This document shows, piece by piece, positions 42,102 to 59,767 of a DNA stretch of 64,000 nt (the first letter of the stretch is position 1; every line of letters begins with the position of its first letter). The notes beneath the pieces were generated by a model, which made no database searches, was not told the origin of the DNA, and saw nothing but the letters and a program-made list of their open reading frames with translations. The position numbers and the translations under genes are program-made. The DNA is taken from positions 18,589 through 82,588 of the forward strand of contig JBDOIE010000015.1 of assembly GCA_041082245.1 (NCBI GenBank). Reading direction: 5' to 3'. The DNA comes from Chloroflexia bacterium (GTDB lineage: Bacteria; Chloroflexota; Chloroflexia; DTKN01).

Positions 42102-42152
42102 GGTCCGGAGGGAAGACTTCTTGAAACGCCAGTGGGTGCGGAGGAGCGGACG

Positions 42153-45137: not shown

Positions 45138-45150
45138 CCTCCTTTTGCCC

Positions 45151-46434
45151 TCAGCTGTTGATGACCCCCGCCAGGCTATGCTCGAAGATGGAAAGAGCCT
45201 CGTCGAGCTCCGGATCGCCGATGATCAGAGGTGGCGTCCAGCGAAGGACATTGTCGTCGGTGCCGCAAGTAGCCAGAAGGAGTCCAGCCTCCAGGCAAGC
45301 CCGCTGCGTATCCCGGGTGCGATCCTTGTCCGGCGTGCGCCCCCCGGGAACGACAAACTCGACGCCGACCATCAGCCCCTGGCCGCGCACCTCCCCGATG
45401 GCGGGGTAGCGCTGCTGCAGCGCCCGCAGCCGGCTCCGCAGCTTCTCCCCCATTATAGCACTATTTTTCACCAGCTGTTCTTCCTCCAGCACGCGCAGGG
45501 CCACCTCGGTTGCGCTGCAGGCGACAGGAGAAGGAACAGGCACGTCCCAGGCTCCTTCTTTGTGCGGGTCCTCGAGAAGTCCCCGACGTGCGGCGACAGC
45601 CCCGAGCGGCAGGCCTGTGGACAGGATCAGGATGTCCGGAACGACCCCCGAATGCTCCAAAGCAAAGAAGCGCCCGCTCCGGCCAAAGCCGGTGCATCTT
45701 TCGTCGAAAAGGAGCAGGATGCCGAATTCGCGGCAGATGTCGCGCAGGCCACGGAGGAATGGGGCTGGAGCGACCACACATCCTCCCTCCCCCAGGATCG
45801 GTTCGACGAGGATGGCGGCTGTCTCCTGTGGCACAGTCTGGCTCTTCAAGAGGAAGCGTACCTGCTCCAGCGGCCAGCCGCAGCAGCTGCCAGCACTGTA
45901 GCGCTCGGGCGCCGCCTCCGCCTTCGGGCAACGGTAGCAATACGGGTAGGGCGCGACCAGGGTCCTGCACGAAAGGGAAGGGTTACCGGTGCATTGCCAG
46001 GCTTTGGCGGTGGACAGGTTCACAGTGGCTATCGTGTGGCCGTGGAAACCGCGCTGGAAGACGATCAGGTTCGGGCGGCCCGTGACGTGGCGCGCGAGCC
46101 GGATCGCCAGCTCGACCGCCTCGCTCTCGCTACCTGTCAGGCAAATGTCAGGGAGCTCGGCGGGCACGACATCGCGCAGTACGCTGACCAACCGGAGCAT
46201 CGGCTCGTGGGGCGCAACGTTCCCCGCCAGGTGGAACAGGCGGCCGGCCTGAGCGCGGATGGCTTCGACGACCCGGGGATGGTTGTGCCCCGTATTCGAT
46301 ACCCCCACACTTGTGGCAAAATCCAGATATCGGCGCCCGCACTCATCCCATAGAAAGGCGTGTTCCCCTCGGACAACAGCGTGTCCAAGGAGAAACTGCG
46401 GTGATGCGTACATTTCGGTTCTACGATCGTTCAT
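45151..46434 (-). CDS. Class III PLP-dependent aminotransferase (GABA/ornithine/omega-aminotransferase family)
   Basis: Class III fold pattern (YLDFATSVGVSNTGHNHPRVVEA ... LIFDERCTGFGRSG). Confidence 0.7.
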   Translation of the reverse strand: MNDRRTEMYASPQFLLGHAVVRGEHAFLWDECGRRYLDFATSVGVSNTGHNHPRVVEAIRAQAGRLFHLAGNVAPHEPMLRLVSVLRDVVPAELPDICLTGSESEAVELAIRLARHVTGRPNLIVFQRGFHGHTIATVNLSTAKAWQCTGNPSLSCRTLVAPYPYCYRCPKAEAAPERYSAGSCCGWPLEQVRFLLKSQTVPQETAAILVEPILGEGGCVVAPAPFLRGLRDICREFGILLLFDERCTGFGRSGRFFALEHSGVVPDILILSTGLPLGAVAARRGLLEDPHKEGAWDVPVPSPVACSATEVALRVLEEEQLVKNSAIMGEKLRSRLRALQQRYPAIGEVRGQGLMVGVEFVVPGGRTPDKDRTRDTQRACLEAGLLLATCGTDDNVLRWTPPLIIGDPELDEALSIFEHSLAGVINS

Positions 46435-46496
46435 CTCACCCTTCTCGTCGGCGGCCTAGAGCCGCCGCTTGTGCCACGCTCCTTCCATCACCCCGC

Positions 46497-47408
46497 TCAC
46501 TCTTCGGGCTCCGGAGACGCGTAGCGGGGTAGTTGCAGCGGGCCAAGCCCACGGAATCCGGGGCCCTGCGCGATCCCTTCGCTGTACATCGGAAAGTTCC
46601 CGTGAAAGTCGCGCAGCTGCTTCAGATGCTGGTTCAGGCCTAGCGTCCCCAGCTCCCTTGTCCGCCGAACGAGCTCGAGGTCCAGCATTTCGACAATCAG
46701 CTCTTCCTCTGCACCGGCCTCGTGCAGGATACGGCCGTGCGGATCTACCACCAGGGAACGGCCAGCGGCGGTGGGCGCGGCGGCGTTCACGCTGACCAGG
46801 TAGCATTGGTTGAACAACGCATGCGCCTGCTCCAGGACCAGCTCGGCCCGCCGGTCTTGGGTGTACGAAAGCGAGGGGTGGAGGATGACTTCGGCACCCA
46901 GCCAGATCAGGCTGCGCACCACCTCCGGGAACCAGGTGTCGTAGCAGATGCACAGCCCGAAGCGCCCTACACCGGGAATGTCGAAGGTGCAGAAATCGTG
47001 GCCGGGGGCGACCACTTCCCACGGCCTCCAGGGAAACATCTTGCGGTACCGTGTGACGAGTTCTCCTTCGGGCGAAAAGACCGGCGCGGTGTTGTACACG
47101 GCATCGCCTTCACGTTCGTGAAAAGAGCCGGGCTGCAGCCAGAAGCGGTAGCGACGAGCCAGTGCGGCCAGCCGTTCCGTCAGGGGCCCCGGGACGGCCT
47201 CGGCATTCCAGTCCCAAGAACGGCCGTCCGGGGGAGGCACCCGTGGGGCGATGCCGGTAGGGTAGAGCTCAGGAAAACATACCAACTGTACCCAGGGGAA
47301 GGAGCGACGGATCAGCGCGAGCACTTGCTCCATCCGCTCGACCGTCCGCTCCGCGTTCCAGGGAACGACTGGCACCTGGGCCACGGCGATTCCCAGAGAT
47401 CTGGACAT
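46497..47408 (-). CDS. Carbon-nitrogen hydrolase family protein (nitrilase/amidase)
   Basis: CN-hydrolase catalytic Glu-Lys-Cys context (CFPELYPTG, LCICYDTWFPE). AAAGGAGG RBS. Confidence 0.7.
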   Translation of the reverse strand: MSRSLGIAVAQVPVVPWNAERTVERMEQVLALIRRSFPWVQLVCFPELYPTGIAPRVPPPDGRSWDWNAEAVPGPLTERLAALARRYRFWLQPGSFHEREGDAVYNTAPVFSPEGELVTRYRKMFPWRPWEVVAPGHDFCTFDIPGVGRFGLCICYDTWFPEVVRSLIWLGAEVILHPSLSYTQDRRAELVLEQAHALFNQCYLVSVNAAAPTAAGRSLVVDPHGRILHEAGAEEELIVEMLDLELVRRTRELGTLGLNQHLKQLRDFHGNFPMYSEGIAQGPGFRGLGPLQLPRYASPEPEE

Positions 47409-47411
47409 GGT

Positions 47412-48464
47412 TCAAACCTCCTTTCTCGAAACGCGTGGCGCGATGGGTTCCGCAGGCACTACTTCTTTCCCTTCCGCGAGGTGGCACGCGACGAGGTGGC
47501 CGACGTCGATCTCGCGCCAGGGAGGATCTGCCTGCTGACACAGGGGACGCGCTTCGGGACAACGGGTGTGGAAGCGGCAGCCGGGGGGCGGATTCGCCGG
47601 GCTCGGTACCTGGCCCGGCAGGAGAAGCCGTTCCCGACGGCCACCCGGCACCGGAAGGGGGATCGACCCGAGCAACGCCCGCGTATAGGGGTGCCCCGGC
47701 CGGTCGAAGACCTGCTCCACGTGCCCGCTTTCCACGAGCCGTCCTAGGTACATAACAGCAATACGGTCGCTGATGTGGTGGACGACCCGCAGATCGTGGG
47801 AGATGAACAGGTAGGTCAGCCCACGCTGCTCCTTGAGCTCCGCGAGCAGGTTGAGGATCTGGGCCTGCACAGAAACGTCCAGTGCACTGGTCGGCTCGTC
47901 CAACACCAGGAAACGCGGTTCGAGGCTGAGCGCCCGTGCGATCGCCACCCGCTGACACTGGCCCCCGCTCAGTTCGTGCGGGTATCGGGCCAGATGCTGG
48001 GCGCCCAGGCCGACCATCTCGAGGAGGGCCAGCACACGCTCCCGTTCCTCGGCCCGGGAAAGTCTGAGGTGTGTCCGCAGGGGCTCAGCCACTATATCGA
48101 AGACGTGGAACCGTGGGCTGAGCGAAGCCAGCGGGTTCTGGAACACGATCTGCATCTCACGTCTTATGCGCTGCAGGTCGCTTCGGGAAAGCCTGAGGAT
48201 ATCTTGTCCGTCGAAAAGCACCTCGCCATCGGTTGGCTCGATAAGGCGCAAGATGCACCGGCCCAGCGTTGTCTTTCCGCACCCGGATTCCCCCACGAGC
48301 CCCAGAACCTCTCCCCGTGCGATCCACAGGTCGACCCGATCCACGGCCCGTATGAGCCGCGGGCGGGTAAAGAGCCAGTCTCCGCGCGCGCGGAACAGTT
48401 TCGCGAGGGAACGGACCTGGACCAGCGGCTCATCCACGCGGCCGGCGACTGTCGCCCCCTTCAT
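47412..48464 (-). CDS. Peptide/nickel-type ABC transporter ATP-binding protein (DppF/OppF-like)
   Basis: Walker A (GESGCGKTT), signature LSGGQCQR and a C-terminal oligopeptide-ABC extension. ATG at 48464 overlaps the upstream stop. Confidence 0.8.
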   Translation of the reverse strand: MKGATVAGRVDEPLVQVRSLAKLFRARGDWLFTRPRLIRAVDRVDLWIARGEVLGLVGESGCGKTTLGRCILRLIEPTDGEVLFDGQDILRLSRSDLQRIRREMQIVFQNPLASLSPRFHVFDIVAEPLRTHLRLSRAEERERVLALLEMVGLGAQHLARYPHELSGGQCQRVAIARALSLEPRFLVLDEPTSALDVSVQAQILNLLAELKEQRGLTYLFISHDLRVVHHISDRIAVMYLGRLVESGHVEQVFDRPGHPYTRALLGSIPLPVPGGRRERLLLPGQVPSPANPPPGCRFHTRCPEARPLCQQADPPWREIDVGHLVACHLAEGKEVVPAEPIAPRVSRKEV

Positions 48465-49441
48465 GGGCGGCCCTCCGTGGTTGCGACATAGCAAGCGACC
48501 AGATGTCCTGGTGCGACCTCGGTGAGCGAAGGTCGGTCGCTCCAACAGCGCTCGCGGGGTTGTCCACACCGGGAGGCGAAGGCACAGCCAGGGATCGACC
48601 CGGGATTTGCGGGTACCGTCCCCGGGATGGCCGCTAGCCGGCGGCCCCGGCTACCCGGCCGCGGGATAGCCGCCATCAATCCTTGCGTATAGGGATGACG
48701 CGGGGCACTGAAGATCGCTTCCGTCGGACCGATCTCCGCCACCCGGCCAGCATAGAGCACGGCGAGTCGGGAGCACGTCTCGGCAATAATCCCTAGGTCG
48801 TGGGTGATCAGCAGCAGCGCGATTCCGTAGCGCTGTTGCAGGTCACGCAGCAATGCCAGAATCTGGGCTTCGATCGTCACATCGAGTGCCGTTGTGGGCT
48901 CGTCCGCGATCAGCAGAGACGGCCGGCACGAAAGGGCCATCGCGATCATGACGCGTTGCTGCATTCCGCCCGAAAGCTCGTGCGGGTAGCACCCCAGGAC
49001 CCTGGGCGCATCCGGCAAACCGACCGCTTCCAGCACTTCGAGCGCACGCGCCTGTGCTTCCGCACGGGAGACTGGCTGGTGTCTACGGATGACGCGCACG
49101 ATCTGGGAACCCACGGTGAACACCGGATTCAGGGATGAAGCGGGATCCTGGAAGATCATAGCGATCCGTCCGCCCCGAATAGACTGCATTTCCTCTTCCG
49201 ACTTGGACCCCAGGTCTTCGCCCTCGAGCCAGATATGCCCACCTGCAATCCGCCCCGGCCGTGAAATCAATCGGAGGATAGAAAGCCCGGTTACCGTTTT
49301 TCCGCACCCCGTTTCGCCGACCAGGCCGAACGACTCGCGGTGTTGGATCTCGAAGCTCACTCCGTCCACCGCGCGCACGATCCCGCGTCGTGTACGGAAT
49401 TCCACACAAAGGTTCTCGACGCGCAGCAGCGGTTCGCCCAC
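48461..49441 (-). CDS. Peptide/nickel-type ABC transporter ATP-binding protein (DppD/OppD-like)
   Basis: Walker A (GETGCGKTV) and LSGGMQQR. Start set to the GTG at 49441 with an AAGGGG RBS just after the permease stop; the ORF-track start would overlap the permease by 73 nt. Confidence 0.75.
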
Positions 49442-49451
49442 TTCTTTCCCC

Positions 49452-50345
49452 TTAACGGTACTGGCGTGGATCGAAAATGTCGCGCAAAGTATCTCCGAGC
49501 AGGTTGAACGCAAGCACTGTGACAAAGATGGCTAGCCCTGGAAACGTGGAGTACCACCACTGGGTGAGGAGGAAGGCGCGTCCTTCGCTCACCATCAGTC
49601 CCCAATCGGGTGCCGGGGGCTGTGCGCCCAGCCCGATGAAAGCCAGGCCGCCTGATGCCAGGATAACGGTGCCGATGTCGATGGTCGCCTGGACCAGGAT
49701 AGGGGATAGGCAGTTCGGGAGAATGTGCCGAAAGATGATCCCCAGGCTCGGGACCCCGACCGCGCGTGCCGCTTCCACGAAATGCCGTTCTCGGAGCGAC
49801 AGCGCGATCCCGCGGACCAGCCGTGTGTACCAGGGCCACCAGGAGATCGCGATGGCCAGCATCGCGTTCGTCAACCCGGGCCCGATGGCGGCCACGATCG
49901 CCATGGCGAGCAGCAGGGAAGGGAAGGCCAAGAAGAGGTCGGTGATCCGCATGATCAGGTCGTCGACCCAGCCTCCCACATACCCGGCTACGGCGCCAAG
50001 CAGTGAACCGATCGCCACTGCGAGCCCGACCACGATGAGCGAAGTGCTCAGCGCCGGCCGCGCGCCGATGATGATGCGGCTGAGGATGTCACGGCCAAGG
50101 CGGTCTGTGCCGAGCGGGTGCTCTCGCGAAGGCGGCAACATCCGCGTGGCCACGTTTGTCTTACCGAAGCCTTGCTCCGGGTAAGGGGCGATCCAGGGAC
50201 CGGCGATGGCCAGGACCAGAAAGCCCGTGATCACAAGCACGCTGAACAGGGCCAGAGGGTCGCGTGTGATCACGTGGGCCGCGTGACGCCACCTCCGCTG
50301 CGTTTGCAGTTCCTCAGGAGAACGGGCGCTCTCTCTTGTCGACAT
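49452..50345 (-). CDS. ABC transporter permease (DppC/OppC-like)
   Basis: 6 TM helices plus an EAA-like loop. Confidence 0.8.
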   Translation of the reverse strand: MSTRESARSPEELQTQRRWRHAAHVITRDPLALFSVLVITGFLVLAIAGPWIAPYPEQGFGKTNVATRMLPPSREHPLGTDRLGRDILSRIIIGARPALSTSLIVVGLAVAIGSLLGAVAGYVGGWVDDLIMRITDLFLAFPSLLLAMAIVAAIGPGLTNAMLAIAISWWPWYTRLVRGIALSLRERHFVEAARAVGVPSLGIIFRHILPNCLSPILVQATIDIGTVILASGGLAFIGLGAQPPAPDWGLMVSEGRAFLLTQWWYSTFPGLAIFVTVLAFNLLGDTLRDIFDPRQYR

Positions 50346-50357
50346 CGTCCTTTTCCT

Positions 50358-51380
50358 TCAACGGAGGCTGATACGCGGGTCGATCCAGGCCTGGAGCAAG
50401 TCAACAGCCAGATTGATGCCTACGTATCCTGCAGCAGCAAAGAGCGTGATTCCCATCACTGCCGGATAGTCCACGCTTAATAGCGAGTGGACCGTAAAGA
50501 GGCCGAGCCCGGGCCAGTTGAAAACGATCTCGATGAAGAAGGTCCCGGTGAGCGCATATGCCAGGGTCAGACCGATCACGGTCAAAGTGGGGCCGATCGC
50601 ATTCTTCAGTGCGTAGCCATAGACCACGAACCGCTCGGATATCCCGTATGCGCGCGCCGTCCGGATATAGTCCTGGGCCAACACTTCCAGCATAGTACCG
50701 CGGGTCATGCGGGCAATGAGGCCGATGGGGTAGGCCGCCAGCGTGAAGGCGGGAAGGACGATGTGCCAGGCGACGTCCTTGAAAGCAACCCAGTTCCCGG
50801 TGATGGCCGTGTCGAGCAGGAAGAACCCGGTGAGTGGCCGGATCGGATGGGTAAAGCGGAGTTCCGTCGCGAACCGGCCCGTGAGCGGGAGCAGGTGAAG
50901 CCAGCGGAAAAAGACCAGTTGCAGCACCAGGCCCAGCCAGAAGGCCGGCATCGAAACCCCGGCGATCGATAGCGTGCGCACCACGACGTCGAACGGGCTG
51001 CCCTGGAAACGAGCCGAGAAGACGCCCAGCGGTACACCGATCAGCACTGCAAGGGACATCCCGACTGCGAGCAGTTCCAGCGACGCGCAGACCCGGTCTC
51101 CGATTTCCCGCAGCACCGGGCGCTTGGTAGAGATCGATTCGCCCCAGTCGCCCCGCAGGAGGTCGCGCATGTAGATCAGGTACTGCACGGGAAGGGGGCG
51201 GTTCAATCCCAGGCGTTCACGGACCATCTCCACCTGCTCGGGGCGGGGATGCGGGCCGATGTAGGCGGCCGCGGGGTCGGAGGGAATGACCCGTGCGAGG
51301 GTAAAGGTGATCAGCGAAAGCCCCAGCAGGACAAAAAGCGACATACCCAAACGCCGCAGTACAAACGCCGCTTTCCGCAC
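50358..51380 (-). CDS. ABC transporter permease (DppB/OppB-like)
   Basis: Typical N-terminus (VLRRLGMSLFVLLGLSLITFTL). Confidence 0.8.
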   Translation of the reverse strand: MRKAAFVLRRLGMSLFVLLGLSLITFTLARVIPSDPAAAYIGPHPRPEQVEMVRERLGLNRPLPVQYLIYMRDLLRGDWGESISTKRPVLREIGDRVCASLELLAVGMSLAVLIGVPLGVFSARFQGSPFDVVVRTLSIAGVSMPAFWLGLVLQLVFFRWLHLLPLTGRFATELRFTHPIRPLTGFFLLDTAITGNWVAFKDVAWHIVLPAFTLAAYPIGLIARMTRGTMLEVLAQDYIRTARAYGISERFVVYGYALKNAIGPTLTVIGLTLAYALTGTFFIEIVFNWPGLGLFTVHSLLSVDYPAVMGITLFAAAGYVGINLAVDLLQAWIDPRISLR

Positions 51381-51441
51381 CGTTGCACTCCCGAAATCTA
51401 CTCTGGGACTCGCCCCAGCGCAATTGTTCTCCGTCCAGGGA

Positions 51442-51467
51442 GCGGGGGCGGAAGGACCCGCCCCCGC
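51442..51467 (-). other. Intercistronic perfect 10-bp GC hairpin (GCGGGGGCGG, AAGGAC loop, CCGCCCCCGC) between the substrate-binding protein gene and the first permease gene
   Basis: Read directly. It lies in the 130-nt gap inside the minus-strand operon. It may act as an mRNA-stability element or a partial terminator. Confidence 0.4.
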
Positions 51468-51510
51468 CCTGAAGACTTAATTGCTCTGGCCTGCGGACTC
51501 GCGAGCGACG

Positions 51511-53136
51511 CTATTCCGCGTACAACGGGTAGAAAAAGAGCGTGAAGGGGTAGTTCATGTTGTACGTGAACCCCTTCAGCCACTTTGGCACTACCAGCGG
51601 CGTCTGCACGTCGTAGAGAAAGACCGCCGGGGCGTCATCAACCAGCAGATTCAGTGCCTGCTCGTAGAGTTGGGCCGATCGGGTAGGGTCAGTGGCTACG
51701 AGCGTGGCCGCCTCGTCGATCAACTGGTCGTACTCCGGATTGGAGTAGTAGCTGAGGTTGAAGAACGGTTTTTCCTCGCTGTGGAACAGCGAGTACATGT
51801 TGTCCGTTCCGGCATCCGCGTACGTCGGCCAGTACAGAAGCAGGAAGATGTCCTGCGCCTTGGTGGGGTCGCCCTTGGCCAGTTCCCACTGTTGCTTCCA
51901 CAACATCGGGCGGATCTCCACGTCGATGCCGATCTCCGCCAGCGCGTCTTTGATGATCGGCGCAAAGCGCTCCTCGCTCTGGTTCTCCGCGGCGTAGGTG
52001 AGCACCACGTGGAGGCCTCCGCCCTCGAACCCGGCCTGTTTCATGAGCTCTTTCGCTTTTTGGGGATCGTATGGATACTGCTTTACGTTCGGGCTGTACG
52101 GCCACACCCCCTCCGGGACCGGCCCACGTGACTGTTTGCCGAAGCCCTGGGCGCCTACAGCGATGATATCCTCGTACGGGATCGCATAGGACACCGCCTG
52201 GCGCACCAGTTTGTTGTCGAAAGGAGGCTTGCGCGTGTTGAGGTAGGCCGCATAGTTGTACATGCTCGGTTCGACGCGGAATTCAAAGTTCGGGTTGTTC
52301 TGGTACAGGTGGATGTTCTCAAGCGGGAGGGATAGGGCGAGGTCCACTTCGCCTCCATCGAGCATCTGCTGCTGGGTGACGGCTTCCGGTACAATGCTCA
52401 CCACGATTTTATCAAAGTGCGGAACGTCTGTCCATCCCCCCCAGTAGTCCGGAAAGGCCGCGAGGACTACTTCTTTATCCGGCGTATAGGATTCCAGGTA
52501 GTACGGGCCTGTCCCCGCAGAAATGCCCTGCTCGAAGTAGTTCGGGTCAGCAGTGGCGGCCGCGATCGCCTTCGGGCTCATGATCCACGCCCCGTTGGAG
52601 CTGGCGGCGATCAGGTCCAGGGCCGCGGCATATTTCAGCTGAAAGCGCACGGTGTAGTCGTCGAGAGCTTCGATCTTGTCCACCGGCGCCCAGATGAAAG
52701 CCGCGCCCAGGCCGAGCTGTATCGTACGCTCGATCGACTGTTTGACCGCTTGCGCGGTGAGGTTTTCGCCATCGTGGAACTTGACCCCCTTGCGCAGATG
52801 GAAGGTCCATTGTAACCCGTCGGGAGAGACTTCCCAGCTTTCCGCCAGGGCCGGCCGGAAGCGTTCCGCCGATCCGGGCGGATTCACGTAGAGCAGGGGT
52901 TCGTACAGGTTGACCATGTAGAGCACCTCCGTGGAGAAAGAGGCGCTCGGGTCCCAAGTGGTCACGTTTGCGGTAGCCGCGACGCGCAGAACGCGCGGGG
53001 CCGGGGTCGCGGTCGGCGCAGGGGGCGGGACGGTCGGAGCGGAGGGCTGGGTCGGTTGAGCGGGGATCGTAGCGGGCCCACACTGCACCAGGGCGAAACT
53101 CAGGCACACCAGCAGAAGGAAGGACACGCGCTTCAT
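51511..53136 (-). CDS. ABC transporter substrate-binding protein, family 5 (peptide/nickel/opine type), secreted lipoprotein-like
   Basis: ATG at 53136 (MKRVSFLLLVCLSFALVQC lipoprotein-like signal) with a GGAGGAGG RBS. Family 5 SBP length and motifs. Confidence 0.8.
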   Translation of the reverse strand: MKRVSFLLLVCLSFALVQCGPATIPAQPTQPSAPTVPPPAPTATPAPRVLRVAATANVTTWDPSASFSTEVLYMVNLYEPLLYVNPPGSAERFRPALAESWEVSPDGLQWTFHLRKGVKFHDGENLTAQAVKQSIERTIQLGLGAAFIWAPVDKIEALDDYTVRFQLKYAAALDLIAASSNGAWIMSPKAIAAATADPNYFEQGISAGTGPYYLESYTPDKEVVLAAFPDYWGGWTDVPHFDKIVVSIVPEAVTQQQMLDGGEVDLALSLPLENIHLYQNNPNFEFRVEPSMYNYAAYLNTRKPPFDNKLVRQAVSYAIPYEDIIAVGAQGFGKQSRGPVPEGVWPYSPNVKQYPYDPQKAKELMKQAGFEGGGLHVVLTYAAENQSEERFAPIIKDALAEIGIDVEIRPMLWKQQWELAKGDPTKAQDIFLLLYWPTYADAGTDNMYSLFHSEEKPFFNLSYYSNPEYDQLIDEAATLVATDPTRSAQLYEQALNLLVDDAPAVFLYDVQTPLVVPKWLKGFTYNMNYPFTLFFYPLYAE

Positions 53137-53190
53137 GACTTTTCCTCCTCCACGAAACGTCGGATCCCGCAGCCCGCATCGGTCGATTTC

Positions 53191-53196
53191 AGTATA
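53191..53196 (-). promoter_or_regulatory. Candidate -10 element (TATACT) for the SBP/ABC operon, about 50 nt upstream of the ATG. No convincing -35.
   Basis: Read directly. Weak. Confidence 0.25.
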
Positions 53197-53241
53197 GCGG
53201 TGGGCTCTCACACGGCTCTAACCCTTTCTCTTACAGCGCGG

Positions 53242-53270
53242 TTGCGCGTAGGCCCGGTCGCAGGTATAAT
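53242..53270 (+). promoter_or_regulatory. Sigma70-like promoter: TTGCGC, 17 bp, TATAAT, upstream of the STAND regulator gene
   Basis: Read directly. 50 nt upstream of the ATG at 53320. Confidence 0.5.
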
Positions 53271-53319
53271 CGCCTTGAGCAGGGCAAGCCTTGGCGCCCG
53301 CCGAACAGGGCGGTGAACG

Positions 53320-56300
53320 ATGAGGGACCTGCCCCTCCTGAGCACCAAGTTCCTGGTTCCGCGGCTCCAGCCGGACCATCTGCCGCGAGAACGGCTCGTG
53401 CGGCAGCTTGGGGTAGCCTTGTACAAGCGTCTTGTGCTACTCTCAGCGCCGCCCGGATACGGGAAAACGACCCTGCTGGCGCTGTTTGCGCGGCAAACGG
53501 AGATTCCCCTGATCTGGTATCAGCTCGATGCGACGGACAACGATCCGATCCTGTTCCTGCACTCCTTGGTCACCGGGTTTCGGATGCGCTTTCCCGGCTT
53601 TGCCCCTGCGACCACAGCATTGCTGGAGGATCATCGCCAGCAGCCCGACCGGCTGCTGGCCGTGTTGCTGAACGAGGTGACAGGCGAGATCAGACCGGAC
53701 GTGCTTCTGGTACTGGAGGATTATCACGCGATCCGGCATCCTGATGTCCACCGGCTGGTACAGTTCTTGCTGGATCACCAGCCGCCGCAGCTGCACCTGT
53801 TGCTTTCCACCCGGGAGGAGCCTCCTCTATCCCTGGCCGGCCTACGCGCAGCCGGCGAGCTCATCGAGTTGCGTGCTGCCGACTTGCGGTTCACAACCGA
53901 GGAGATTTCGCAACTTACGGCATCCCTGGAACTGGGCGAAACACTCGTCGATCTTCTCGCAGAACGCACTGAAGGGTGGCCTGCGGGTCTGCAGCTTGCG
54001 CTCGCGGCGCTGGCACAGAGGCCGGGAGTGCCGCCTCAAGAGGTCGTGCGGCGCTTCCGGGGGAACCACCGCTTCGTTTTCGATTACCTGGCCGAAGAGG
54101 TTTTCGAACGCCAGCCTCGCGAGGTACAGGATTTCCTGTTGCGATCTTCCATCCTGGAGCAGATGAGCGCGCCGAGCTGCAACGACATCCTCGGGATCGA
54201 CAACGCGAAAGTGCTCCTTGAAGAGCTGGAGAAACGGAACCTTTTCCTGCAGGGCCTGGATGAAGAGCGGCGCTGGTACCGATACCATCAGCTGTTTCGA
54301 GATTTCCTTCTGGATCGCCTCTACCGGCAGGGCGAAGAAGAACCGCTTCGGTTGCACGCGCGGGCTGGCGACTACTACGCCGAACAGGGAATGTGGGATC
54401 TGGCCGCCGAGCACTACGTCGCGGCACGGAGCGTTCCAGGATTGAGCCGGGCGGTCCGCGCGCTTGCTCCGTGCTGTCTGCAGAGTGGCCGCCTGGAGAC
54501 CCTATACCGTTACCTTTTGGCCTTACCGCCTCGGGTCTTCGAAGAGGAGCCGGACTTGCTTCTGTACCAGGGGCAGGTGTTCCGCCACTGGGGCAGGGTC
54601 GAGGAAGCGGTCGCTTGTTACGAAAGAGCACGTTCCCTTTATGAGGTGCGCGACGAACGGAATGGGCTGTCGCGCGCGCTGAGCGAGCTGGCTTACATCG
54701 CGCTCTCGCGTGGCGAATACCGGGATGCCCAGCGGCTGGCGCAGCAGGCTCTGGGTGCCGCAGGACCGCACGACCATCTGGAACGATCCTCGGCACTGAT
54801 GGCGCTGGCGCGTAGCACTGGTTTCCTGGAAGGGATGGAACGCGGGTGCAAGCTCGGGGAAGAGGCACTTCGCGAGGCGGAGGTCGCTGATCCCCCGCTG
54901 CCTCGGACGGCCCGGGCGCGCCTGCTGCTTTCTCAGGCCCAGTTATGTTGGTGGTACGGGGACCCTTTCGCTACTGTGGGCCATTGTCAGGCGGCGCTGG
55001 ACGCGGAGCCTGAGCCGGTTTCGCCTATTGCCTGCCGGGCCTTTGTCATTATGGTCAGCCCCCATCTCTATTGGGGCAACTTTTCGTTAGCCCGTGACCT
55101 TGCACAAAAGGGCCTGGCGTTGAGCGAGCAACTCCAGTACACCGAGTGGCGGCCGATGGCACATGCGGCGCTGGGCATGGTGCTTTCTCGCCAGGGCCAG
55201 CTGGCTCTAGGGGAGAAGCACCTCCGTGAAGCGATCTCGCTGGCCCGTCGCCTGGGTGCGGAAAGCTACGCGCAGCTGATGGCGGCCGGGTACCTTGCAG
55301 CGAACCTGAGCCAGCAGGGCCGGCTGGCGGAAGCTCGCCGCTGCTGCGAAGAGGTCCTGCATCTATACGAGGCCAACCAGGAGACCTACGAATACTCGGT
55401 GTGCCGGAGCGTGCTGGGCGATGTGTTGATGGATATGGGGGATCTGGACACGGCGTGGGAGTATTTCCTGAGCCTGCGGCAGATCGATGAGGCGCGACAG
55501 TTCCGTCTGCCGTTGGCGATGGTCCATTTTGCTCTGGGCTACCTGCATCTCTTGGCCGGCCGTCGGGACCCGGCGCTGGAGGCCATCCGGGATTCGATGG
55601 AGATCATACGCCAGACAAACACGGTCGTCCTCTATCTCGACCAGGGGCAACGCGCAGCTGCCGTGTGTCGAGCGGCACTCGAAGCTGGGATCTGCCCCGA
55701 TCTCGCGCGCCGGATCCTTGGGATGCTTGGCGCCGATGGGCAGCTGGCCGTGGAGCCTTGCTATGAGGCCCGTACATCCACCGAGCCGGTCGACCGGCGG
55801 AGGCCCTTCGAGATCGTAACGCTTGGCGGGTTCCGCGTCTTCTACGAGGGGCGTGAGATCGGGAAAGAAGCCGGGTTGGTGGGGCGCCCCAGGGAGATGC
55901 TGGCCTATTTCATCACCCATCGGTACGAGCGCCTTCCCCTCGACCGGATCGTGGAAGACCTTTGGCCCGGGTGCGCTCCGGAACAGGGACAAGCCGTTTT
56001 TCACACCACGCTGCACCGGCTGCGCCGTGCTTTGAGCCGCGTCGCCGGCCCAGGAACCTATGTCCGTCACGATGGCGGAGAGTATCAGCTGGAGGCCGAG
56101 GCATTTCGCGTGGACGTCGACACGTTCGAGGCCTGTCTGCAGCGTGCGCGGAGCAGCGTCGGCACCAGTGCACAACGCGCCTGCGAAGAGGCAGCCCAGC
56201 GCTATGGGGGAGCGTACCTGGTTAACCTGTACGCAGACTGGTGCGAAGCCGAACGCCGGAGGCTCACCTCGGCCTATCTGGAAGTGCTCCGCACGCTTGT

Positions 56301-56577
56301 CGCGGCGTATACCGCTGCCGGGGACTATACGCGTGCCGTTTGGGCATGCGAGCGAATGCTCGAGGTCGATCCGCTGCTGGAAGAGGTGCACTGCGAGCTG
56401 ATGCGGCTCTGGCACCGGATGGGGAATCGTGCGGCGGTCATCCGCCAGTACGAGCGCCTCGTCCAGCTGCTCGCGCAGGAGGTGTGTGCAAGCCCCTTGC
56501 CGGAAACGCAGCGCCTCTTGCGGGAGCTGCTGGCTCGGCCAGCAGGCGCCATCCTTGACAATCCGGGGCCTTTCTGA
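53320..56577 (+). CDS. Large ATP-dependent transcriptional regulator: MalT-like STAND NTPase N-terminus, TPR-like repeats, C-terminal OmpR-type winged helix plus BTAD (SARP-type) module
   Basis: N-terminus (LLSTKFLVPRLQPDHLPRERLVRQL ... LLSAPPGYGKTTLLALF, Walker B LVLEDYH) resembles MalT. The C-terminus (FEIVTLGGFRVFYEGREIG ... MLAYFITHRYERLPLDRIVEDLWP ... then a BTAD helical repeat) resembles SARP/AfsR DNA-binding domains. Confidence 0.6.
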   Translation: MRDLPLLSTKFLVPRLQPDHLPRERLVRQLGVALYKRLVLLSAPPGYGKTTLLALFARQTEIPLIWYQLDATDNDPILFLHSLVTGFRMRFPGFAPATTALLEDHRQQPDRLLAVLLNEVTGEIRPDVLLVLEDYHAIRHPDVHRLVQFLLDHQPPQLHLLLSTREEPPLSLAGLRAAGELIELRAADLRFTTEEISQLTASLELGETLVDLLAERTEGWPAGLQLALAALAQRPGVPPQEVVRRFRGNHRFVFDYLAEEVFERQPREVQDFLLRSSILEQMSAPSCNDILGIDNAKVLLEELEKRNLFLQGLDEERRWYRYHQLFRDFLLDRLYRQGEEEPLRLHARAGDYYAEQGMWDLAAEHYVAARSVPGLSRAVRALAPCCLQSGRLETLYRYLLALPPRVFEEEPDLLLYQGQVFRHWGRVEEAVACYERARSLYEVRDERNGLSRALSELAYIALSRGEYRDAQRLAQQALGAAGPHDHLERSSALMALARSTGFLEGMERGCKLGEEALREAEVADPPLPRTARARLLLSQAQLCWWYGDPFATVGHCQAALDAEPEPVSPIACRAFVIMVSPHLYWGNFSLARDLAQKGLALSEQLQYTEWRPMAHAALGMVLSRQGQLALGEKHLREAISLARRLGAESYAQLMAAGYLAANLSQQGRLAEARRCCEEVLHLYEANQETYEYSVCRSVLGDVLMDMGDLDTAWEYFLSLRQIDEARQFRLPLAMVHFALGYLHLLAGRRDPALEAIRDSMEIIRQTNTVVLYLDQGQRAAAVCRAALEAGICPDLARRILGMLGADGQLAVEPCYEARTSTEPVDRRRPFEIVTLGGFRVFYEGREIGKEAGLVGRPREMLAYFITHRYERLPLDRIVEDLWPGCAPEQGQAVFHTTLHRLRRALSRVAGPGTYVRHDGGEYQLEAEAFRVDVDTFEACLQRARSSVGTSAQRACEEAAQRYGGAYLVNLYADWCEAERRRLTSAYLEVLRTLVAAYTAAGDYTRAVWACERMLEVDPLLEEVHCELMRLWHRMGNRAAVIRQYERLVQLLAQEVCASPLPETQRLLRELLARPAGAILDNPGPF

Positions 56578-56583
56578 TAGTAT
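56555..56583 (+). promoter_or_regulatory. Sigma70-like promoter: TTGACA, 17 bp, TAGTAT. The -35 lies inside the last codons of the regulator gene, and the -10 starts right after its stop. It would give a roughly 160-nt leader for the protease gene.
   Basis: Read directly. Confidence 0.4.
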
Positions 56584-56746
56584 CACTTGTGTAGACATTA
56601 TCTCCCTTTCTCCATCTGTATCCCGGCATCCCGAACCCGGGTGTGCGTTGCACAGCCCGAGCGTATTTGCCTACAGAGAGGAGGTGGTCGCCGCTAGCTG
56701 TTCCTCCCGCTTCCCGTGGATCCAGGCTGAGAGCAAGGAGGTTACG

Positions 56747-59700
56747 ATGAACTGGAGCCGAATCCTGCGGCTACTCGGTGTACTGGTGCTCCTCGTGATC
56801 GGCCTAGCGGCGCTTCCTTCGGTCGCGACCCCGAACAGCAAGATCGAGCCGGCACTCCTGGAGAAACTCGCCGCGGAACGGACCGCTGATTTCATCGTCC
56901 GCTTTGGCGAACAGGCGGACCTCAGTCCTGCCTATCAGATGGGCTGGAAAGAGCGCGGCGAGTTCGTTGTGCGCGCGCTGACCGAAGTGGCCGAGCGCAG
57001 CCAGGCGACGGCAAAGACCTACCTGGACGGGCGCGGTATCGCGTACCGGACGTTTATCGCGGGCAACGAACTATACGTCTGGTCGGGCGATCTCGCCGCC
57101 GCCAACCGTCTGGCCGAGTTTCCCGAAGTGGCTTTCATCCGGGCTACCCGCACGTACTACGTGGATCCGATCATCTCCAACGAGACAAACGCCGCGCCGC
57201 ACGCGCTTGACTGGGGCATCTTGGATACAGGAGCAGATGACTTTTGGGCCGCTTTCGGCGTCCAGGGCGACGGCATCGTAGTTGCGAACATCGACACCGG
57301 CGTCCAGTGGAACCACCCCGCCCTCGACCAGGCCTACAAGTGCGCTTCGAACCCGACCAGCCCTGCCTGCTGGTACGATCCTTCCAGCATCTGCGGGGGT
57401 ACCGTGTGCGACAACAACGGCCACGGCACGCACACGATGGGCACGATGGTCGGGGACGACGATCCCTCGCTAGCCTATCAGGTCGGGATGGCGCCGAACG
57501 CCCTGTGGATCGCCTGCAAGGGGTGCGAGACGAACTCGTGCTCGGATTTCGCCCTGAACGCCTGCGCGGACTGGATCCTGCAACCCGATGGCAACCCGGC
57601 GAACCGCCCGCACGTGGTGAACAACTCCTGGGGCGGGGGTGGGTGCGACACCTGGTACCAGGCGAAGGTACAGGCCTGGCGCGCGGCCGGCATCTTCCCC
57701 GCCTTCTCGGCCGGGAACTCGGGTTCTGGCTGCGGCACGCTGGGTAGCCCCGGGGACTATCAGGAGTCGTTTGCCAGCGCGGCACACGATGTCTCCCGCA
57801 ACATTGCCTCCTTCTCGAGCCGGGGTCCTTCCTGCTTCGGGCACGATCCGTACACGAAGCCGAACATCTCGGCCCCGGGTGTAAACGTCTGCTCCTCGGT
57901 GCCCACAAACGCCTGGAGCTGCACCTACAGCGGCACCTCGATGGCCAGCCCGCACTCCGCGGGGGCGGTGGCGCTGCTCTGGTCGTGCAACCCGAGCCTG
58001 ATCGGCCAGATCGACCTGACCTTCGAGGCCCTCCAGAACACCGCGGATACGCCGCCGGCCGGAAACTGCAATGCGCCTCCGGACGGTGAGGGGAACTATA
58101 CCTACGGCTACGGATACCTCAACGTGTACCAGGCCGGCCTCCAGTACTGCGGCGGTGTCGCGCTGGGCTACCTGCAGGGCCACGTGTACGATGCCGACAC
58201 CGGCAGCCCGATCGGGGGAGCCAACGTGATCGCGGTACCGGGTGGCCAGATCCTCGCGGTCACGGATCCCACGGGCTACTACACGATGTCCCTGGTCCCC
58301 GGGGTCTACGACGTGACGGCCTCGAAGAACGGCTACGACTCGCAGACGGTCCAGGACATCCACATCTACACCGACACTGTGACCACCCAGGACTTCCAGC
58401 TGCACTTCCTTGGCCAGTGGACGTTGCTTCCGGACAACCCGTTCGACTACACCCGCTTCGACTGCGTCTGGTTCGACGACGGGACGGGACCCTCGGCCTA
58501 CAACCAGAAGGTCTACTGCCTCGGCGGGCGCACCGGCTCCACGACCGAGGATCCCTCTATCTGGCGCTTCGATCCGGTAACCCAGGTCTGGACGGATACC
58601 GGGCACGACGTCTACGAGGATGTCTCCAACTACACCGCCAACCTGCTGCGGGACGAGAACTATGACACCCAAGGGCTAGCGATCTACATCGTCGGTGGGT
58701 ACGACGCGGAGGGCGGCGGCTATATGCCCATTGTGCAGCGTTACTACCCCAAGACCGGGCTTGCGCAGAACGTCCCCGACGACCCCTGGCCGGTAATGGT
58801 CGGCGGGTACAACACCATCCCCGGAGCGTGCGTCAGCACCTCGGATCTGACCAAGATCTACTGCTTCGGCGCCTGGGAGAGCAACGCTGCGCCCTATTTC
58901 TCCGCCCAGACCTGGGAGTATGACCCGACCCGGCCCGACACCCAGCGCTGGCAGCAGATCACCACGGCCAACCTGAGCGTGCCACGGGGTTACATCCTGG
59001 CCGCGGTCCAGGGCACCAAGATCTATGCCATAGGCGGTGACTACCAGTACACGGGCGGCGATCTGGTGCCCACGGACATCGTCGAGGTGCTCGATGTGAC
59101 CAACCTGGCCGCGGGCTGGTCGACCGTGGCCTCCATGCCCATCCCGCTGTCCCAGGGGCGTGCCTTCGGCCTCGATGTCGACACGCTGGGAGTGAACGTC
59201 CCCGTGGGCAAGATTTACACCGCGGGCGGCGGCGACTGGCCGAACGAGACCACCGAGGCGATGGAGTACGACGTGGCGTCCGACACCTGGAATCAGGCCT
59301 TCCCCGATCTGAACATCGCCCGCCGCAACCACGCTGGTGTATACATCCCGCTGTGCACGCCCGATGATCCGACCGACCTGATGCCTTCGCTCTTGGTGGT
59401 CGGAGGCCGGAGCGGCTCGGATGTCCCGCCCTACCCCCAGCCGGAGTACTTCCCGTTCTCCTGCTCGATCTGTGAGCCGGTCGAGATCCTGTCGGTCATT
59501 ACCACGACCGAAGGGTGCGTCGTCTCCTTCAGCGCGGAGGTAACGGGTACCGAGCCGATCGACTTCCTGTGGGACTTTGGGCCCTTCGGGACGACCACGG
59601 AGACGAACCCGATCGTGGACTTCCAGGCGAGCGGCACCTACGCCTACACGTTGACCGTCTCCAACTGCGGCGGTACCGACAGCTGGAGCGGTACAGTCAC

Positions 59701-59767
59701 GGTCGAGTGTGCGCCGCCGATGTGGGAGATCTACCTGCCTGTCGTCTTCAAAGCCTACGAACCTTAG
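56747..59767 (+). CDS. Secreted multi-domain subtilisin-like serine protease (S8): signal peptide, I9-like propeptide, S8 catalytic domain, CarbopepD-reg-like beta-sandwich, Kelch-type beta-propeller-like region and a C-terminal PKD-like domain
   Basis: AAGGAGG RBS. MNWSRILRLLGVLVLLVIGLAALPSVA signal. Catalytic triad motifs (VANIDTGV, HGTHTMGT, GTSMASPHSAG). Repeated ...YxxGG... blades. C-terminal WDFGPFGTTTE...YTLTVSN PKD-like motif. Confidence 0.85.
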   Translation: MNWSRILRLLGVLVLLVIGLAALPSVATPNSKIEPALLEKLAAERTADFIVRFGEQADLSPAYQMGWKERGEFVVRALTEVAERSQATAKTYLDGRGIAYRTFIAGNELYVWSGDLAAANRLAEFPEVAFIRATRTYYVDPIISNETNAAPHALDWGILDTGADDFWAAFGVQGDGIVVANIDTGVQWNHPALDQAYKCASNPTSPACWYDPSSICGGTVCDNNGHGTHTMGTMVGDDDPSLAYQVGMAPNALWIACKGCETNSCSDFALNACADWILQPDGNPANRPHVVNNSWGGGGCDTWYQAKVQAWRAAGIFPAFSAGNSGSGCGTLGSPGDYQESFASAAHDVSRNIASFSSRGPSCFGHDPYTKPNISAPGVNVCSSVPTNAWSCTYSGTSMASPHSAGAVALLWSCNPSLIGQIDLTFEALQNTADTPPAGNCNAPPDGEGNYTYGYGYLNVYQAGLQYCGGVALGYLQGHVYDADTGSPIGGANVIAVPGGQILAVTDPTGYYTMSLVPGVYDVTASKNGYDSQTVQDIHIYTDTVTTQDFQLHFLGQWTLLPDNPFDYTRFDCVWFDDGTGPSAYNQKVYCLGGRTGSTTEDPSIWRFDPVTQVWTDTGHDVYEDVSNYTANLLRDENYDTQGLAIYIVGGYDAEGGGYMPIVQRYYPKTGLAQNVPDDPWPVMVGGYNTIPGACVSTSDLTKIYCFGAWESNAAPYFSAQTWEYDPTRPDTQRWQQITTANLSVPRGYILAAVQGTKIYAIGGDYQYTGGDLVPTDIVEVLDVTNLAAGWSTVASMPIPLSQGRAFGLDVDTLGVNVPVGKIYTAGGGDWPNETTEAMEYDVASDTWNQAFPDLNIARRNHAGVYIPLCTPDDPTDLMPSLLVVGGRSGSDVPPYPQPEYFPFSCSICEPVEILSVITTTEGCVVSFSAEVTGTEPIDFLWDFGPFGTTTETNPIVDFQASGTYAYTLTVSNCGGTDSWSGTVTVECAPPMWEIYLPVVFKAYEP

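Follow-up and report, generated by a model that had tools for sequence, protein, structure and literature searches.

The gene at 53320..56577 (+) of a 64-kb stretch of Chloroflexota DNA, called here in its entirety the window, encodes a protein of 1085 amino acids with an ATG start, in which a MalT-type STAND NTPase and a TPR sensor are followed by a linker and a C-terminal SARP module. The locus raises the question of what kind of regulator this protein is and which of its neighbours, a secreted protease downstream or an ABC-transporter operon on the opposite strand, it controls. To our knowledge, all SARPs studied to date are actinobacterial, carry the SARP module at the N-terminus and control secondary metabolism or development, all MalT/LAL proteins studied to date give their output through a LuxR HTH, and transcription regulation in the Chloroflexota is almost unstudied.

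The open reading frame is genuine, and the order of its parts is MalT-clade STAND ATPase, TPR, linker, winged helix and BTAD. This order is borne out alike by HMMs, by matches to PDB sequences and by an AlphaFold model of high confidence. The N-terminus agrees with the N-termini of orthologues (MKPSILLRTKFLVPR vs MRDLPLLSTKFLVPR). Pfam assigns AAA_16 to residues 23-162, TPR_12/TPR_MalT to 415-770 and BTAD to 931-1071 (E 1.5e-19). The AlphaFold2 model has a mean pLDDT of 91.7 and a pTM of 0.70; the pLDDT falls below 50 at residues 807-825 (55738..55794, +), a disordered linker that tethers the output module.

The NOD, comprised of the P-loop NBD and a helical/winged-helix arm, occupies residues 1-400 (53320..54519, +) and is placed in the MalT clade by phmmer, Foldseek and PF25873 (WHD_MalT), the last assigned to the winged-helix arm by precomputed annotation. 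When PDB sequences are searched with phmmer, residues 17-403 align to residues 12-401 of E. coli MalT (8bob, E 2.3e-47), and the alignment takes in both the ~60 residues at the N-terminus and Walker A (SAPPGYGKTT vs SPAGYGKTT). The NOD matches that of MalT with TM 0.85 (8bob_C, Foldseek) at 29% identity. With the NCBIfam MalT model, residues 6-486 match MalT 2-487 (E 6.7e-91); the alignment ends at residue 486, and the score is under the equivalog cut-off (305.7 vs 537 bits). Walker A (residues 42-51; 53443..53472, +) and Walker B (VLLVLED, residues 128-134; 53701..53721, +) were located by sequence and homologue alignment. Among 114 homologues G46, G48, K49 and T50 of Walker A are invariant, as are D134 and H136 at Walker B, and E133 is at least 90% conserved. 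Both Walker motifs are intact and the winged-helix arm is present, as in MalT/LAL proteins. The superhelical TPR-like sensor typical of these proteins follows at residues 404-803 (54529..55728, +; PF17874 TPR_MalT) and corresponds to MalT domain III (1hz4, TM 0.79, Foldseek). A Pfam search for the GerE/LuxR HTH, with which MalT/LAL proteins end, gave no match in the regulator; its C-terminus is instead a winged helix and BTAD.

The output module begins with an OmpR-type winged-helix DNA-binding domain (residues 830-930; 55807..56109, +) with the recognition helix AVFHTTLHRLRRAL. It is directly followed, as in SARPs, by the BTAD (residues 931-1072; 56110..56535, +), which is identified by PF03704, a match to AfsR and Foldseek. 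For the isolated winged-helix segment, Pfam Trans_reg_C gives a marginal, sub-threshold score (E 0.0084, 16.6 bits vs a cut-off of 26.2), and the winged-helix call therefore leans on structure (Foldseek, 8k60) and on family-level matches, Trans_reg_C being annotated in many homologues that share the architecture. A single phmmer stretch joins residues 836-1077 to residues 51-287 of the AfsR SARP module (8hvr, E 6e-7), and Foldseek superposes the module on AfsR in 8k60_I/J with TM 0.75-0.76 and an rmsd of 3.5-3.8 over 250 columns. The module lies at residues 830-1072 of 1085, whereas the recognised SARP classes (small, medium, large and SARP-LAL) all carry it at the N-terminus (PMC10972967; 2026 preprint).

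The initial annotation, made from the sequence alone, had described the protein as a circularly permuted SARP with a MalT-like N-terminus and a winged helix and BTAD at its C-terminal end. The order NTPase-TPR-wHTH-BTAD and the identity of both ends are confirmed by the results above, but the implied origin from AfsR does not hold. A profile search of the N-terminal fragment for NB-ARC, with E values up to 10, found none, and the regulator does not have the NB-ARC NOD that AfsR-type proteins carry between the SARP module and the TPR. The PDB sequence search aligns full-length AfsR (chains 8jke and 8k60) to it through the SARP module only. A rearranged AfsR is ruled out by the MalT-clade ATPase and this restricted alignment; for these reasons, and with no NB-ARC match, the regulator is a MalT/LAL-type protein with a SARP module in place of the LuxR output domain. 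PADLOC found no defence-system match, only a single weak generic TPR match (E 4e-4), and neither a defence STAND model nor a nuclease or other effector domain of the anti-phage (Avs-like) STANDs was detected by it.

The same architecture is present in all 120 of the 120 best database matches and in 45 of the 80 best genome loci, and the proteins that share it come nearly all from Chloroflexota. It defines a common, unstudied family in this phylum, labelled by NCBI "BTAD domain-containing putative transcriptional regulator". The initial annotation took this domain order to be one not known to have been characterised, in agreement with our search of the open literature (subscription papers, e.g. 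the 2004 STAND classification, lay outside it), in which no description of a C-terminal SARP/BTAD on a MalT scaffold was found. It had also allowed for a common annotated family with a known function; the family is indeed common and generically annotated, but has no function assigned.

As judged from gene order, the conserved partner of the regulator is the divergent operon at 43929..53136 (-), delineated by domain searches and synteny. On the minus strand it encodes an SBP_bac_5 lipoprotein (51511-53136), two permeases (50358-51380 and 49452-50345), two ATPases (48461-49441 and 47412-48464), an amidase-like CN_hydrolase (46497-47408), a class-III aminotransferase (Aminotran_3; 45151-46434) and, reported for the operon in this genome, a CoA-transferase III (43929-45131). 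The ABC transporter is of the Opp/Dpp type. Synteny between operon and regulator extends to 26 related loci. By tblastn, 21 genome loci have divergent SBP_bac_5 and permease genes directly upstream of the regulator, gene calls place them upstream in five of six close homologues, and in the five close loci L082-L086 the operon continues through CN_hydrolase and Aminotran_3. The genes 3' of the regulator vary between loci. All operon proteins score under the cut-offs of the NCBIfam equivalog models; its probable role is the import and catabolism of a nitrogen compound of the peptide or amide type. The operon is the likely target of the regulator. Distant paralogues (26-32% identity) have heterogeneous neighbours, SBP_bac_5 in three of ten and VWA, amine oxidase, HD-GYP and RNA polymerase beta' genes in the remainder, and the target assignment is therefore limited to the regulator's orthologous group.

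The divergent promoter region contains a predicted binding site of three 8-bp direct repeats at 53205..53235 (-), conserved in clade A, which consists of seven loci with regulators about 60-73% identical to that of the window. Read on the minus strand, the distal repeat is TGTAAGAG (53235-53228), the middle repeat GGTTAGAG (53223-53216) and the proximal repeat TGTGAGAG (53212-53205), with start-to-start spacings of 12 and 11 bp. The ABC-operon promoter has a predicted -10 hexamer that reads TATACT on the minus strand (53191..53196, -) and lies 8 bp downstream of the proximal repeat; the -35 position is occupied by AGAGCC, which has one of six matches to TTGACA. With the -10 hexamer and the transcription start both predicted from the sequence, the array is placed at roughly -21 to -51. 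An array so placed overlaps the core promoter, a geometry that is by itself also compatible with a repressor. On the other side, the likely promoter of the regulator itself, TTGCGC-17-TATAAT (53242..53270, +), was read from the sequence and is under the promoter-scan threshold. Its predicted -35 sits 6 bp from the distal repeat, and the position of the site just upstream of it makes autoregulation possible. In SARP promoters direct repeats recur with an 11-bp period, the 3' repeat is 8 bp from the -10, each protomer touches the first 8 bp of its repeat, and the box overlaps a poor -35 (PMC10936776). In silico, the predicted site follows the SARP pattern, in which the period of the repeats is 11 or 22 bp and the 3' repeat stands 8 bp away from the -10; the afs box has two repeats, whereas here there are three, at 11- and 12-bp spacing.

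The clade-A site reads TGTnAGAG-N4-TGTnAGAG-N3-nGTGAkAG-N8-TAyAmT in its seven loci, where it lies in intergenic regions that are otherwise unalignable, and is found nowhere else in the 64-kb window. A pattern made from the six other clade-A loci has one match in the window, at 53205-53235 with one mismatch, and none in 100 shuffled controls. A two-unit scan of the window returned only the same site (shuffle mean 0.4), and an independent repeat search yielded GGCTCTCAC/GGCTCTAAC at 11-bp spacing. In clade B (17 loci) the site is TTTGCAAA-N3-TTTGCAAA-N10-TAnnAT, at a constant distance to a -10 that is mostly extended by TGn. The ABC promoter has no -35 in either clade and keeps a good -10. When 1.09 Mb of loci were scanned on both strands, the site patterns were confined almost entirely to these intergenic regions. 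Site, regulator and operon occur together in 24 loci, and L087, a close orthologue without the ABC operon, is also without the site. The clade-B units are palindromic, so that direct- and inverted-repeat binding are indistinguishable there; the distance from the end of these 8-bp units to the -10 is 10 bp, and the 8-bp rule fits them only with a 2-bp register shift.

Sequence comparison between the clades indicates that the repeats co-vary with the residues of the recognition helix and wing, which are QAVFHTTLyRLRRAL...YvRhE in clade A and TAFHTALSRLRNAL...lILVE in clade B. Conservation and co-variation suggest that the regulator binds DNA at the repeats. Our preferred reading, to which we assign a probability of about 0.7, is that the regulator is a MalT/LAL-type STAND activator with a C-terminal SARP module that switches on the divergent operon via the three repeats. 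The resting protein would be an ADP-bound, autoinhibited monomer. A small-molecule inducer, probably a substrate or catabolite of the adjacent uptake and catabolic operon, would bind the TPR-like sensor, ADP would be exchanged for ATP, and the NOD would oligomerise. The oligomer would align the SARP modules, each tethered by a flexible linker of ~20 residues, side by side on the repeats at 53205-53235 with 11/12-bp phasing, and the modules would substitute for the contact between the -35 and sigma region 4, as in AfsR. In this genome, the SBP_bac_5 lipoprotein, both permeases, both ATPases, the CN-hydrolase, the class-III aminotransferase and the CoA-transferase would be turned on. MalT and GutR, which bind the inducer and then ATP, provide a precedent (PMC10936776), and by this analogy the regulator would multimerise in an inducer- and ATP-dependent manner. 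We infer that it activates rather than represses the ABC operon, and likewise the inducer, ATP dependence and stoichiometry of its action.

The initial annotation had arrived at a different target. Adjacent to the regulator and on the same strand is a secreted S8 subtilase with a signal peptide, Peptidase_S8, CarboxypepD_reg, a Kelch propeller and PKD (56747..59767, +), which was taken as the probable target, with its promoter embedded in the regulator's 3' end. A promoter-like site was recovered there by a promoter scan as TTGACA-17-TAGTAT with an upstream TG (56555..56583, +), overlapping the last codons of the regulator and crossing its stop codon. The pairing of a secreted protease with a peptide-type ABC importer would be physiologically sensible, and the closest relative, L082, shares both the downstream protease (86% identity over 198 aa, tblastn) and the promoter motif. 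However, the promoter of L082 stands between the genes, about 100 nt past the stop codon of the regulator, and the overlap in the window is therefore a local accident. A tblastn search of related loci found the protease homologue only in L082, besides L001, which is the same contig; according to gene calls the genes 3' of the regulator in L083-L087 are unrelated. The protease is a neighbour and not a conserved partner. The SARP-type repeats that the initial annotation proposed to look for in its leader, which is ~165 nt long, were found instead past the 5' end of the regulator gene, in the divergent ABC promoter; a repeat search detected no direct repeats in the protease leader or promoter, and neither the three-unit nor the two-unit site model matched there. 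The promoter itself is near-consensus, with a perfect -35 and an extended -10, and needs no activator that replaces the -35. Control of the protease by the regulator is thus very improbable, and the protease promoter is outside the predicted regulon. A weak candidate site in the leader (TAGTATCACTtgtgTAGACA) was rejected, as it matches no site model, is unconserved in L082 and lies downstream of the -10. An Rfam scan of 52900-57000 gave nothing credible.

If the regulator does bind the repeats, its main role at the divergent promoters might be that of a repressor or a dual autoregulator, with inducer and ATP relieving repression. Occupancy of an array that overlaps the ABC core promoter and borders on the -35 from which the regulator itself is probably transcribed could block RNA polymerase. 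Nevertheless, we consider this unlikely, because a promoter with a good -10 and no -35 in both clades bears the signature of activator dependence, and the 8 bp to the -10 with 11-bp phasing is the geometry of the SARP activation complex (PMC10936776). Moreover, the characterised proteins in which BTAD occurs are activators, as are the STAND proteins of MalT type, and orthologues differ in the distance from the site to the regulator's own -10, which ranges from 2 nt to over 30 nt. The repeats could also belong to another transcription factor, with the regulator acting elsewhere or on nothing near and the synteny being coincidental or due to some other functional link. Distant paralogues do adjoin unrelated genes, but the co-occurrence of site, regulator and operon in 24 loci, the loss of the site where the operon is missing, the change of the repeats between clades together with the recognition-helix and wing residues, and a repeat geometry specific to SARP-type binders (PMC10936776) make this the least probable of the readings.

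The family unites the SARP and MalT/LAL proteins, with the SARP module as an interchangeable output on the MalT scaffold. It provides a testable regulon prediction of a 31-bp site, one promoter and one operon, and natural specificity variants (TGTnAGAG vs TTTGCAAA) paired with recognition-helix changes. The system may be used for studying how STAND oligomerisation places SARP modules on DNA, for mapping the residues of the SARP DNA-binding domain that set sequence specificity and for exploring the sensing of peptide- or amide-type nutrients in Chloroflexota. Labels that are generic or misleading, for example "LuxR family maltose regulon positive regulatory protein", are also corrected. A wider and more tentative proposal, which we rate at slightly less than even odds, is that such proteins are a hitherto uncharacterised class of ligand-gated STAND activators throughout the phylum, whose NOD oligomers would line up at least three tethered C-terminal SARPs in head-to-tail order on an array of three repeats that takes the place of the -35 contact. 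If true, SARP-type 'sigma adaptation' would not be peculiar to actinomycete antibiotic regulation but would be a portable, general output mechanism that serves primary catabolism in the Chloroflexota and in some Bacillota, and the SARP output would function from either end of the STAND scaffold.

Among the known systems, E. coli MalT and the LALs share with the regulator the order of NOD, sensor and C-terminal DNA-binding output. The STAND NODs can be aligned residue by residue, from the first ~15 positions to the end of the arm, and the sensor corresponds to MalT domain III. The target, predicted for the regulator, is likewise an adjacent ABC-transporter and catabolic operon, and inducer- and ATP-driven multimerisation onto several repeated boxes would be expected by analogy. 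However, their LuxR/GerE HTH of about 65 aa is replaced by a winged helix and BTAD of ~245 aa on a disordered linker, and in place of MalT boxes a head-to-tail direct-repeat array over the -35 position is predicted. PH0952 of Pyrococcus horikoshii (6mfv; Foldseek E 8.6e-14, TM 0.60), a MalT-like STAND with a TPR sensor and the model for double autoinhibition of TPR-sensor STANDs, is alike in the fold of the NOD and the sensor; its 641-residue chain aligns to these two parts only and has no SARP module.

AfsR and the other large SARPs possess all three elements, the SARP output, the STAND ATPase and the TPR sensor. The SARP module of the regulator superposes on that of AfsR in the transcription initiation complex (TM 0.75), and the predicted promoter geometry (8-bp repeats, 11-bp period, 8 bp to the -10, poor -35) is the same. 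In AfsR, however, the module is N-terminal rather than C-terminal, the ATPase is NB-ARC rather than MalT-clade, and the site has two repeats where three are predicted here. The large SARPs are from actinomycetes whereas the host of the regulator belongs to the Chloroflexota, the AfsR target is secondary metabolism and not, as predicted here, a nutrient uptake and catabolic operon, and, unlike AfsR, the regulator gives no indication of Ser/Thr-kinase control. The SARP-LALs (PimR, FilR, SanG) likewise join a SARP module to a LAL-like part, an ATPase and repeat region without the LuxR HTH; in them the SARP module is N-terminal and the LAL-like part comes after it (PMC10972967). The regulator reverses this order, and its N-terminus retains the complete MalT-type start.

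The regulator is encoded on the plus strand by an ORF with an ATG start (53320-56577, 1085 residues). Because Pfam, NCBIfam, PDB sequences, an AlphaFold2 model and Foldseek agree, its domain order of NTPase, TPR sensor, winged helix (wHTH) and BTAD is real, as the initial annotation had proposed. Pfam places AAA_16/AAA_22 at residues 23-162, TPR_12/TPR_MalT across residues 415-770 and BTAD at residues 931-1071 (E 1.5e-19); the winged helix by itself is under the Pfam threshold (E 0.0084). The NCBIfam MalT model aligns its positions 2-487 to residues 6-486 (E 6.7e-91) with 305.7 bits, under the equivalog cut-off of 537 bits. Residues 17-403 match residues 12-401 of E. coli MalT in a PDB sequence search (8bob, E 2.3e-47), and this alignment spans the extreme N-terminus, Walker A and Walker B (LLVLEDYH in the regulator, LVIDDYH in MalT), which upholds the earlier description of a MalT-like N-terminus. 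The same search matched residues 836-1077 to the AfsR SARP module in a single stretch (8hvr, E 6e-7) and found no match to full-length AfsR chains outside that module. The AlphaFold2 model, made from 114 homologues, is confident (pLDDT 91.7, pTM 0.70) and has a disordered linker at residues 807-825. Foldseek aligned it with the MalT NOD (8bob_C, TM 0.85), MalT domain III (1hz4, TM 0.79), an archaeal MalT-like STAND-TPR protein (6mfv, TM 0.60) and the AfsR SARP module as bound within the transcription initiation complex (8k60_I/J, TM 0.75-0.76, rmsd 3.5-3.8 Å over 250 columns).

Judged by sequence, the ATPase belongs to the MalT clade. PF25873 (WHD_MalT) is recorded for the family and no NB-ARC signal was found in the regulator with Pfam; the protein is not a rearranged AfsR. 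The name "circularly permuted SARP" given earlier thus describes the order of the functional parts correctly and fails as an account of origin. In evolutionary terms the regulator appears to be a member of the MalT/LAL group that has had a SARP module put in place of the LuxR domain at its C-terminus. Walker A residues G46, G48, K49 and T50 and Walker B residue D134 are invariant across the 114 homologues; such conservation speaks for a functional nucleotide switch.

A search of 5.8 billion protein clusters with the regulator gave 5124 matches at E ≤ 1e-10. Domain content was read from the best 120, a few of which are partial; the complete sequences are ~1050-1150 residues long. All of these 120 except two partial sequences have BTAD together with WHD_MalT and TPR_MalT, and many additionally have Trans_reg_C. 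The homologues carry generic or misleading database names, "BTAD domain-containing putative transcriptional regulator" at NCBI and "LuxR family maltose regulon positive regulatory protein" at JGI. On contigs, counting one genome per species, 588 relatives were confirmed, and 45 of the best 80 of these loci match via the C-terminal SARP module. The hosts are nearly all Chloroflexota (Anaerolineales, Caldilineaceae, Thermoflexia, Ardenticatenaceae, Promineifilaceae, Aggregatilineales), with two loci in Bacillota; the nearest named relative is in a Thermoflexia MAG (62% identity), which assigns the window to a Chloroflexota genome.

The SARP module alone gave 52,445 matches at E ≤ 0.001 among 1.84 billion representatives. 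In the best 150 of them the module is C-terminal in ~37 proteins of at least 1000 residues and N-terminal in ~16. It is also C-terminal after GAF, after LysM-FtsK, and as a second SARP on NB-ARC proteins. Two proteins from this search, P0136 (1229 residues) and P0152 (1368 residues), have an NB-ARC ATPase and TPRs between two BTAD/SARP stretches and look like AfsR with an additional C-terminal module. Three others (P0166, P0174, P0163) carry a C-terminal wHTH-BTAD in GAF-SARP (~740 residues) and LysM plus FtsK/SpoIIIE ATPase-SARP (1182 residues) arrangements. Reviews of SARP classes describe the module at the N-terminus only (PMC10972967), and no mention of a C-terminal SARP or BTAD was found in the literature searched. 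The NTPase-TPR-wHTH-BTAD order is therefore new against the characterised literature, as had been supposed, but not against the sequence databases, where it is abundant under generic names; its rarity had been overstated.

The conserved partner of the regulator, as judged from synteny, is the divergent operon on the minus strand. Its first gene, immediately upstream of the regulator, encodes an SBP_bac_5 lipoprotein (SBP, 51511-53136); the remaining genes encode two permeases, two ATPases, a CN-hydrolase, a class-III aminotransferase and a family-III CoA-transferase. The SBP and permease genes lie divergently beside the regulator in 21 genome loci (SBP identity 51-64% by tblastn), and five of six close homologues have the complete series as far as the aminotransferase. 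The CoA-transferase occurs only on the contig of the window, the other loci ending at or before the aminotransferase. In NCBIfam the SBP comes closest to GsiB/DppA, the CN-hydrolase to amidases, the aminotransferase to GABA transaminase and the CoA-transferase to succinate-glutarate CoA-transferase, all under the equivalog cut-offs; a nitrogen compound of the peptide, amide or omega-amino type is the probable substrate. A second, weak CN_hydrolase-like stretch lies just past the operon end (42213-42905, plus strand, 27% identity to the operon hydrolase), within a long ORF (42132-45137) overlapping the opposite-strand CoA-transferase gene.

Between the regulator and the operon, the intergenic regions of clade A (the window and six loci with regulators about 60-73% identical) are 165-381 bp long and share one alignable element. 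In the direction of the operon, all seven have three direct repeats, TGTnAGAG-N4-TGTnAGAG-N3-nGTGAkAG, and a spacer of exactly 8 bp separates the last repeat from a -10-like hexamer (TATACT or TATAAT). In the window the array lies at 53205-53235 and the predicted -10 of the ABC operon at 53191-53196, both on the minus strand; the hexamer at the -35 position has one of six matches to TTGACA. The site is 69-88 nt from the SBP start codon in clade A, a near-constant distance, and a variable 83-295 nt from the regulator start. The pattern derived from the six other loci has a single match in the 64-kb window, at the array itself (shuffles 0/100), a two-unit scan of the window gave no second site, and a repeat search found the 11-bp-spaced repeat independently.

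Clade B, 17 other loci, has a different array, TTTGCAAA-N3-TTTGCAAA, invariably 10 bp from a TAnnAT hexamer, or 8 bp if read in the register TGCAAAnn. Most of these promoters have an extended -10 (TGn), and a -35 is again absent. Its unit TTTGCAAA is a perfect 8-bp palindrome (e.g. L005 2507-2525, L022 5939-5957); the tandem pair is identical on both strands, and the site could therefore, in principle, serve both divergent promoters. Both patterns are almost confined to the divergent intergenic regions in 1.09 Mb of loci scanned, and where the repeat sequence differs between the clades, residues of the recognition helix and wing differ too. Beside another SBP_bac_5 gene, a distant paralogue (L038, 29% identity) has TGTAACAG twice with 11-bp spacing in the intergenic region (5423-5441), with GACTCT 8 nt further on; this unit is similar to the clade-A TGTnAGAG. 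In SARP promoters the direct repeats recur every 11 or 22 bp and the 3' one ends 8 bp short of the -10; each protomer touches the first 8 bp of a repeat, and the box overlaps a poor -35 (PMC10936776). In its sequence geometry the divergent-promoter array thus carries the published hallmark of SARP promoters.

That these repeats belong to an unrelated binder is the least probable reading, and the correlated change of protein and repeat speaks against it. The sole close orthologue away from the ABC operon (L087, protein P0022, 59% identical) has neither the operon nor the three-repeat site and sits instead among flavodoxin-like and thioredoxin-domain genes, which makes it valuable as a negative control provided by nature. 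Repression by the regulator would use the same repeats and is the least improbable of the alternatives, though still unlikely beside an array placed as in SARP promoters at a promoter that lacks a -35.

Control of the downstream S8 subtilase, the target proposed by the initial annotation, is very improbable. The gene (plus strand, 56747-59767) has an AAGGAGG ribosome-binding site ahead of its ATG at 56747 and codes for a signal peptide directly after it; Pfam finds Peptidase_S8 and, as an unusual C-terminal decoration of the secreted subtilase, CarboxypepD_reg, a Kelch beta-propeller and PKD. In its favour, a near-consensus promoter-like TTGACA-17-TAGTAT with TG does lie across the regulator stop codon, embedded in the 3' end of the gene as had been noticed. 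The motif is kept in L082, the closest relative, where it is intergenic, ~100 nt past the regulator stop; the overlap is therefore local to the window. Comparison of window 56500-56760 with L082 11160-11560 shows conservation of the promoter (cTTGACAA...CTTTCTGATAnTAT) and of the parts ATCCCGGCATC and GAGAAAGGAGGTG of the ~165-nt leader, which has no Rfam match. About 100 nt that follow the regulator stop in L082 are missing from the window, so that the last ~10 codons of the ORF (residues 1079-1085 have low pLDDT) overrun the promoter. Against such control, in-frame tblastn of the related loci found protease homologues only in L082 and in L001, which is the same contig, and the genes downstream of the regulator are unrelated in five other close homologues. 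Direct repeats, which the initial annotation had suggested looking for, are absent from the leader, and the site models did not match there. A promoter with a perfect -35 is also the opposite of a SARP-dependent one; among the related loci, the protease is not the conserved partner.

The regulator has a likely promoter of its own, TTGCGC-17-TATAAT (plus strand), in which the TATAAT (53265-53270) precedes the ATG by 49 nt. Autoregulation is possible, because the distal repeat of the array is 6 bp from this -35. Many orthologues (L003-L009, L012, L019, L040) have TATAAT 6-9 nt ahead of the regulator ATG, which suggests leaderless mRNAs.

A MalT-like switch with a SARP output is the best-supported model. 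The domains, the synteny, the site with its position and the co-variation were observed directly; from them we infer DNA binding, the inducer, the stoichiometry and the regulatory sign. Proteins that join a MalT/LAL scaffold to a SARP output constitute an abundant yet uncharacterised family, now with a specific regulon prediction. In MalT and GutR, inducer binding, ATP binding and NOD oligomerisation provide the precedent (PMC10936776). After that precedent, an inducer on the sensor would lead to ATP binding and NOD oligomerisation, and the linker-tethered SARP modules would be presented as an array occupying the three repeats. At the ABC-operon promoter these modules would stand in for the missing -35 contact, like AfsR at afsS.
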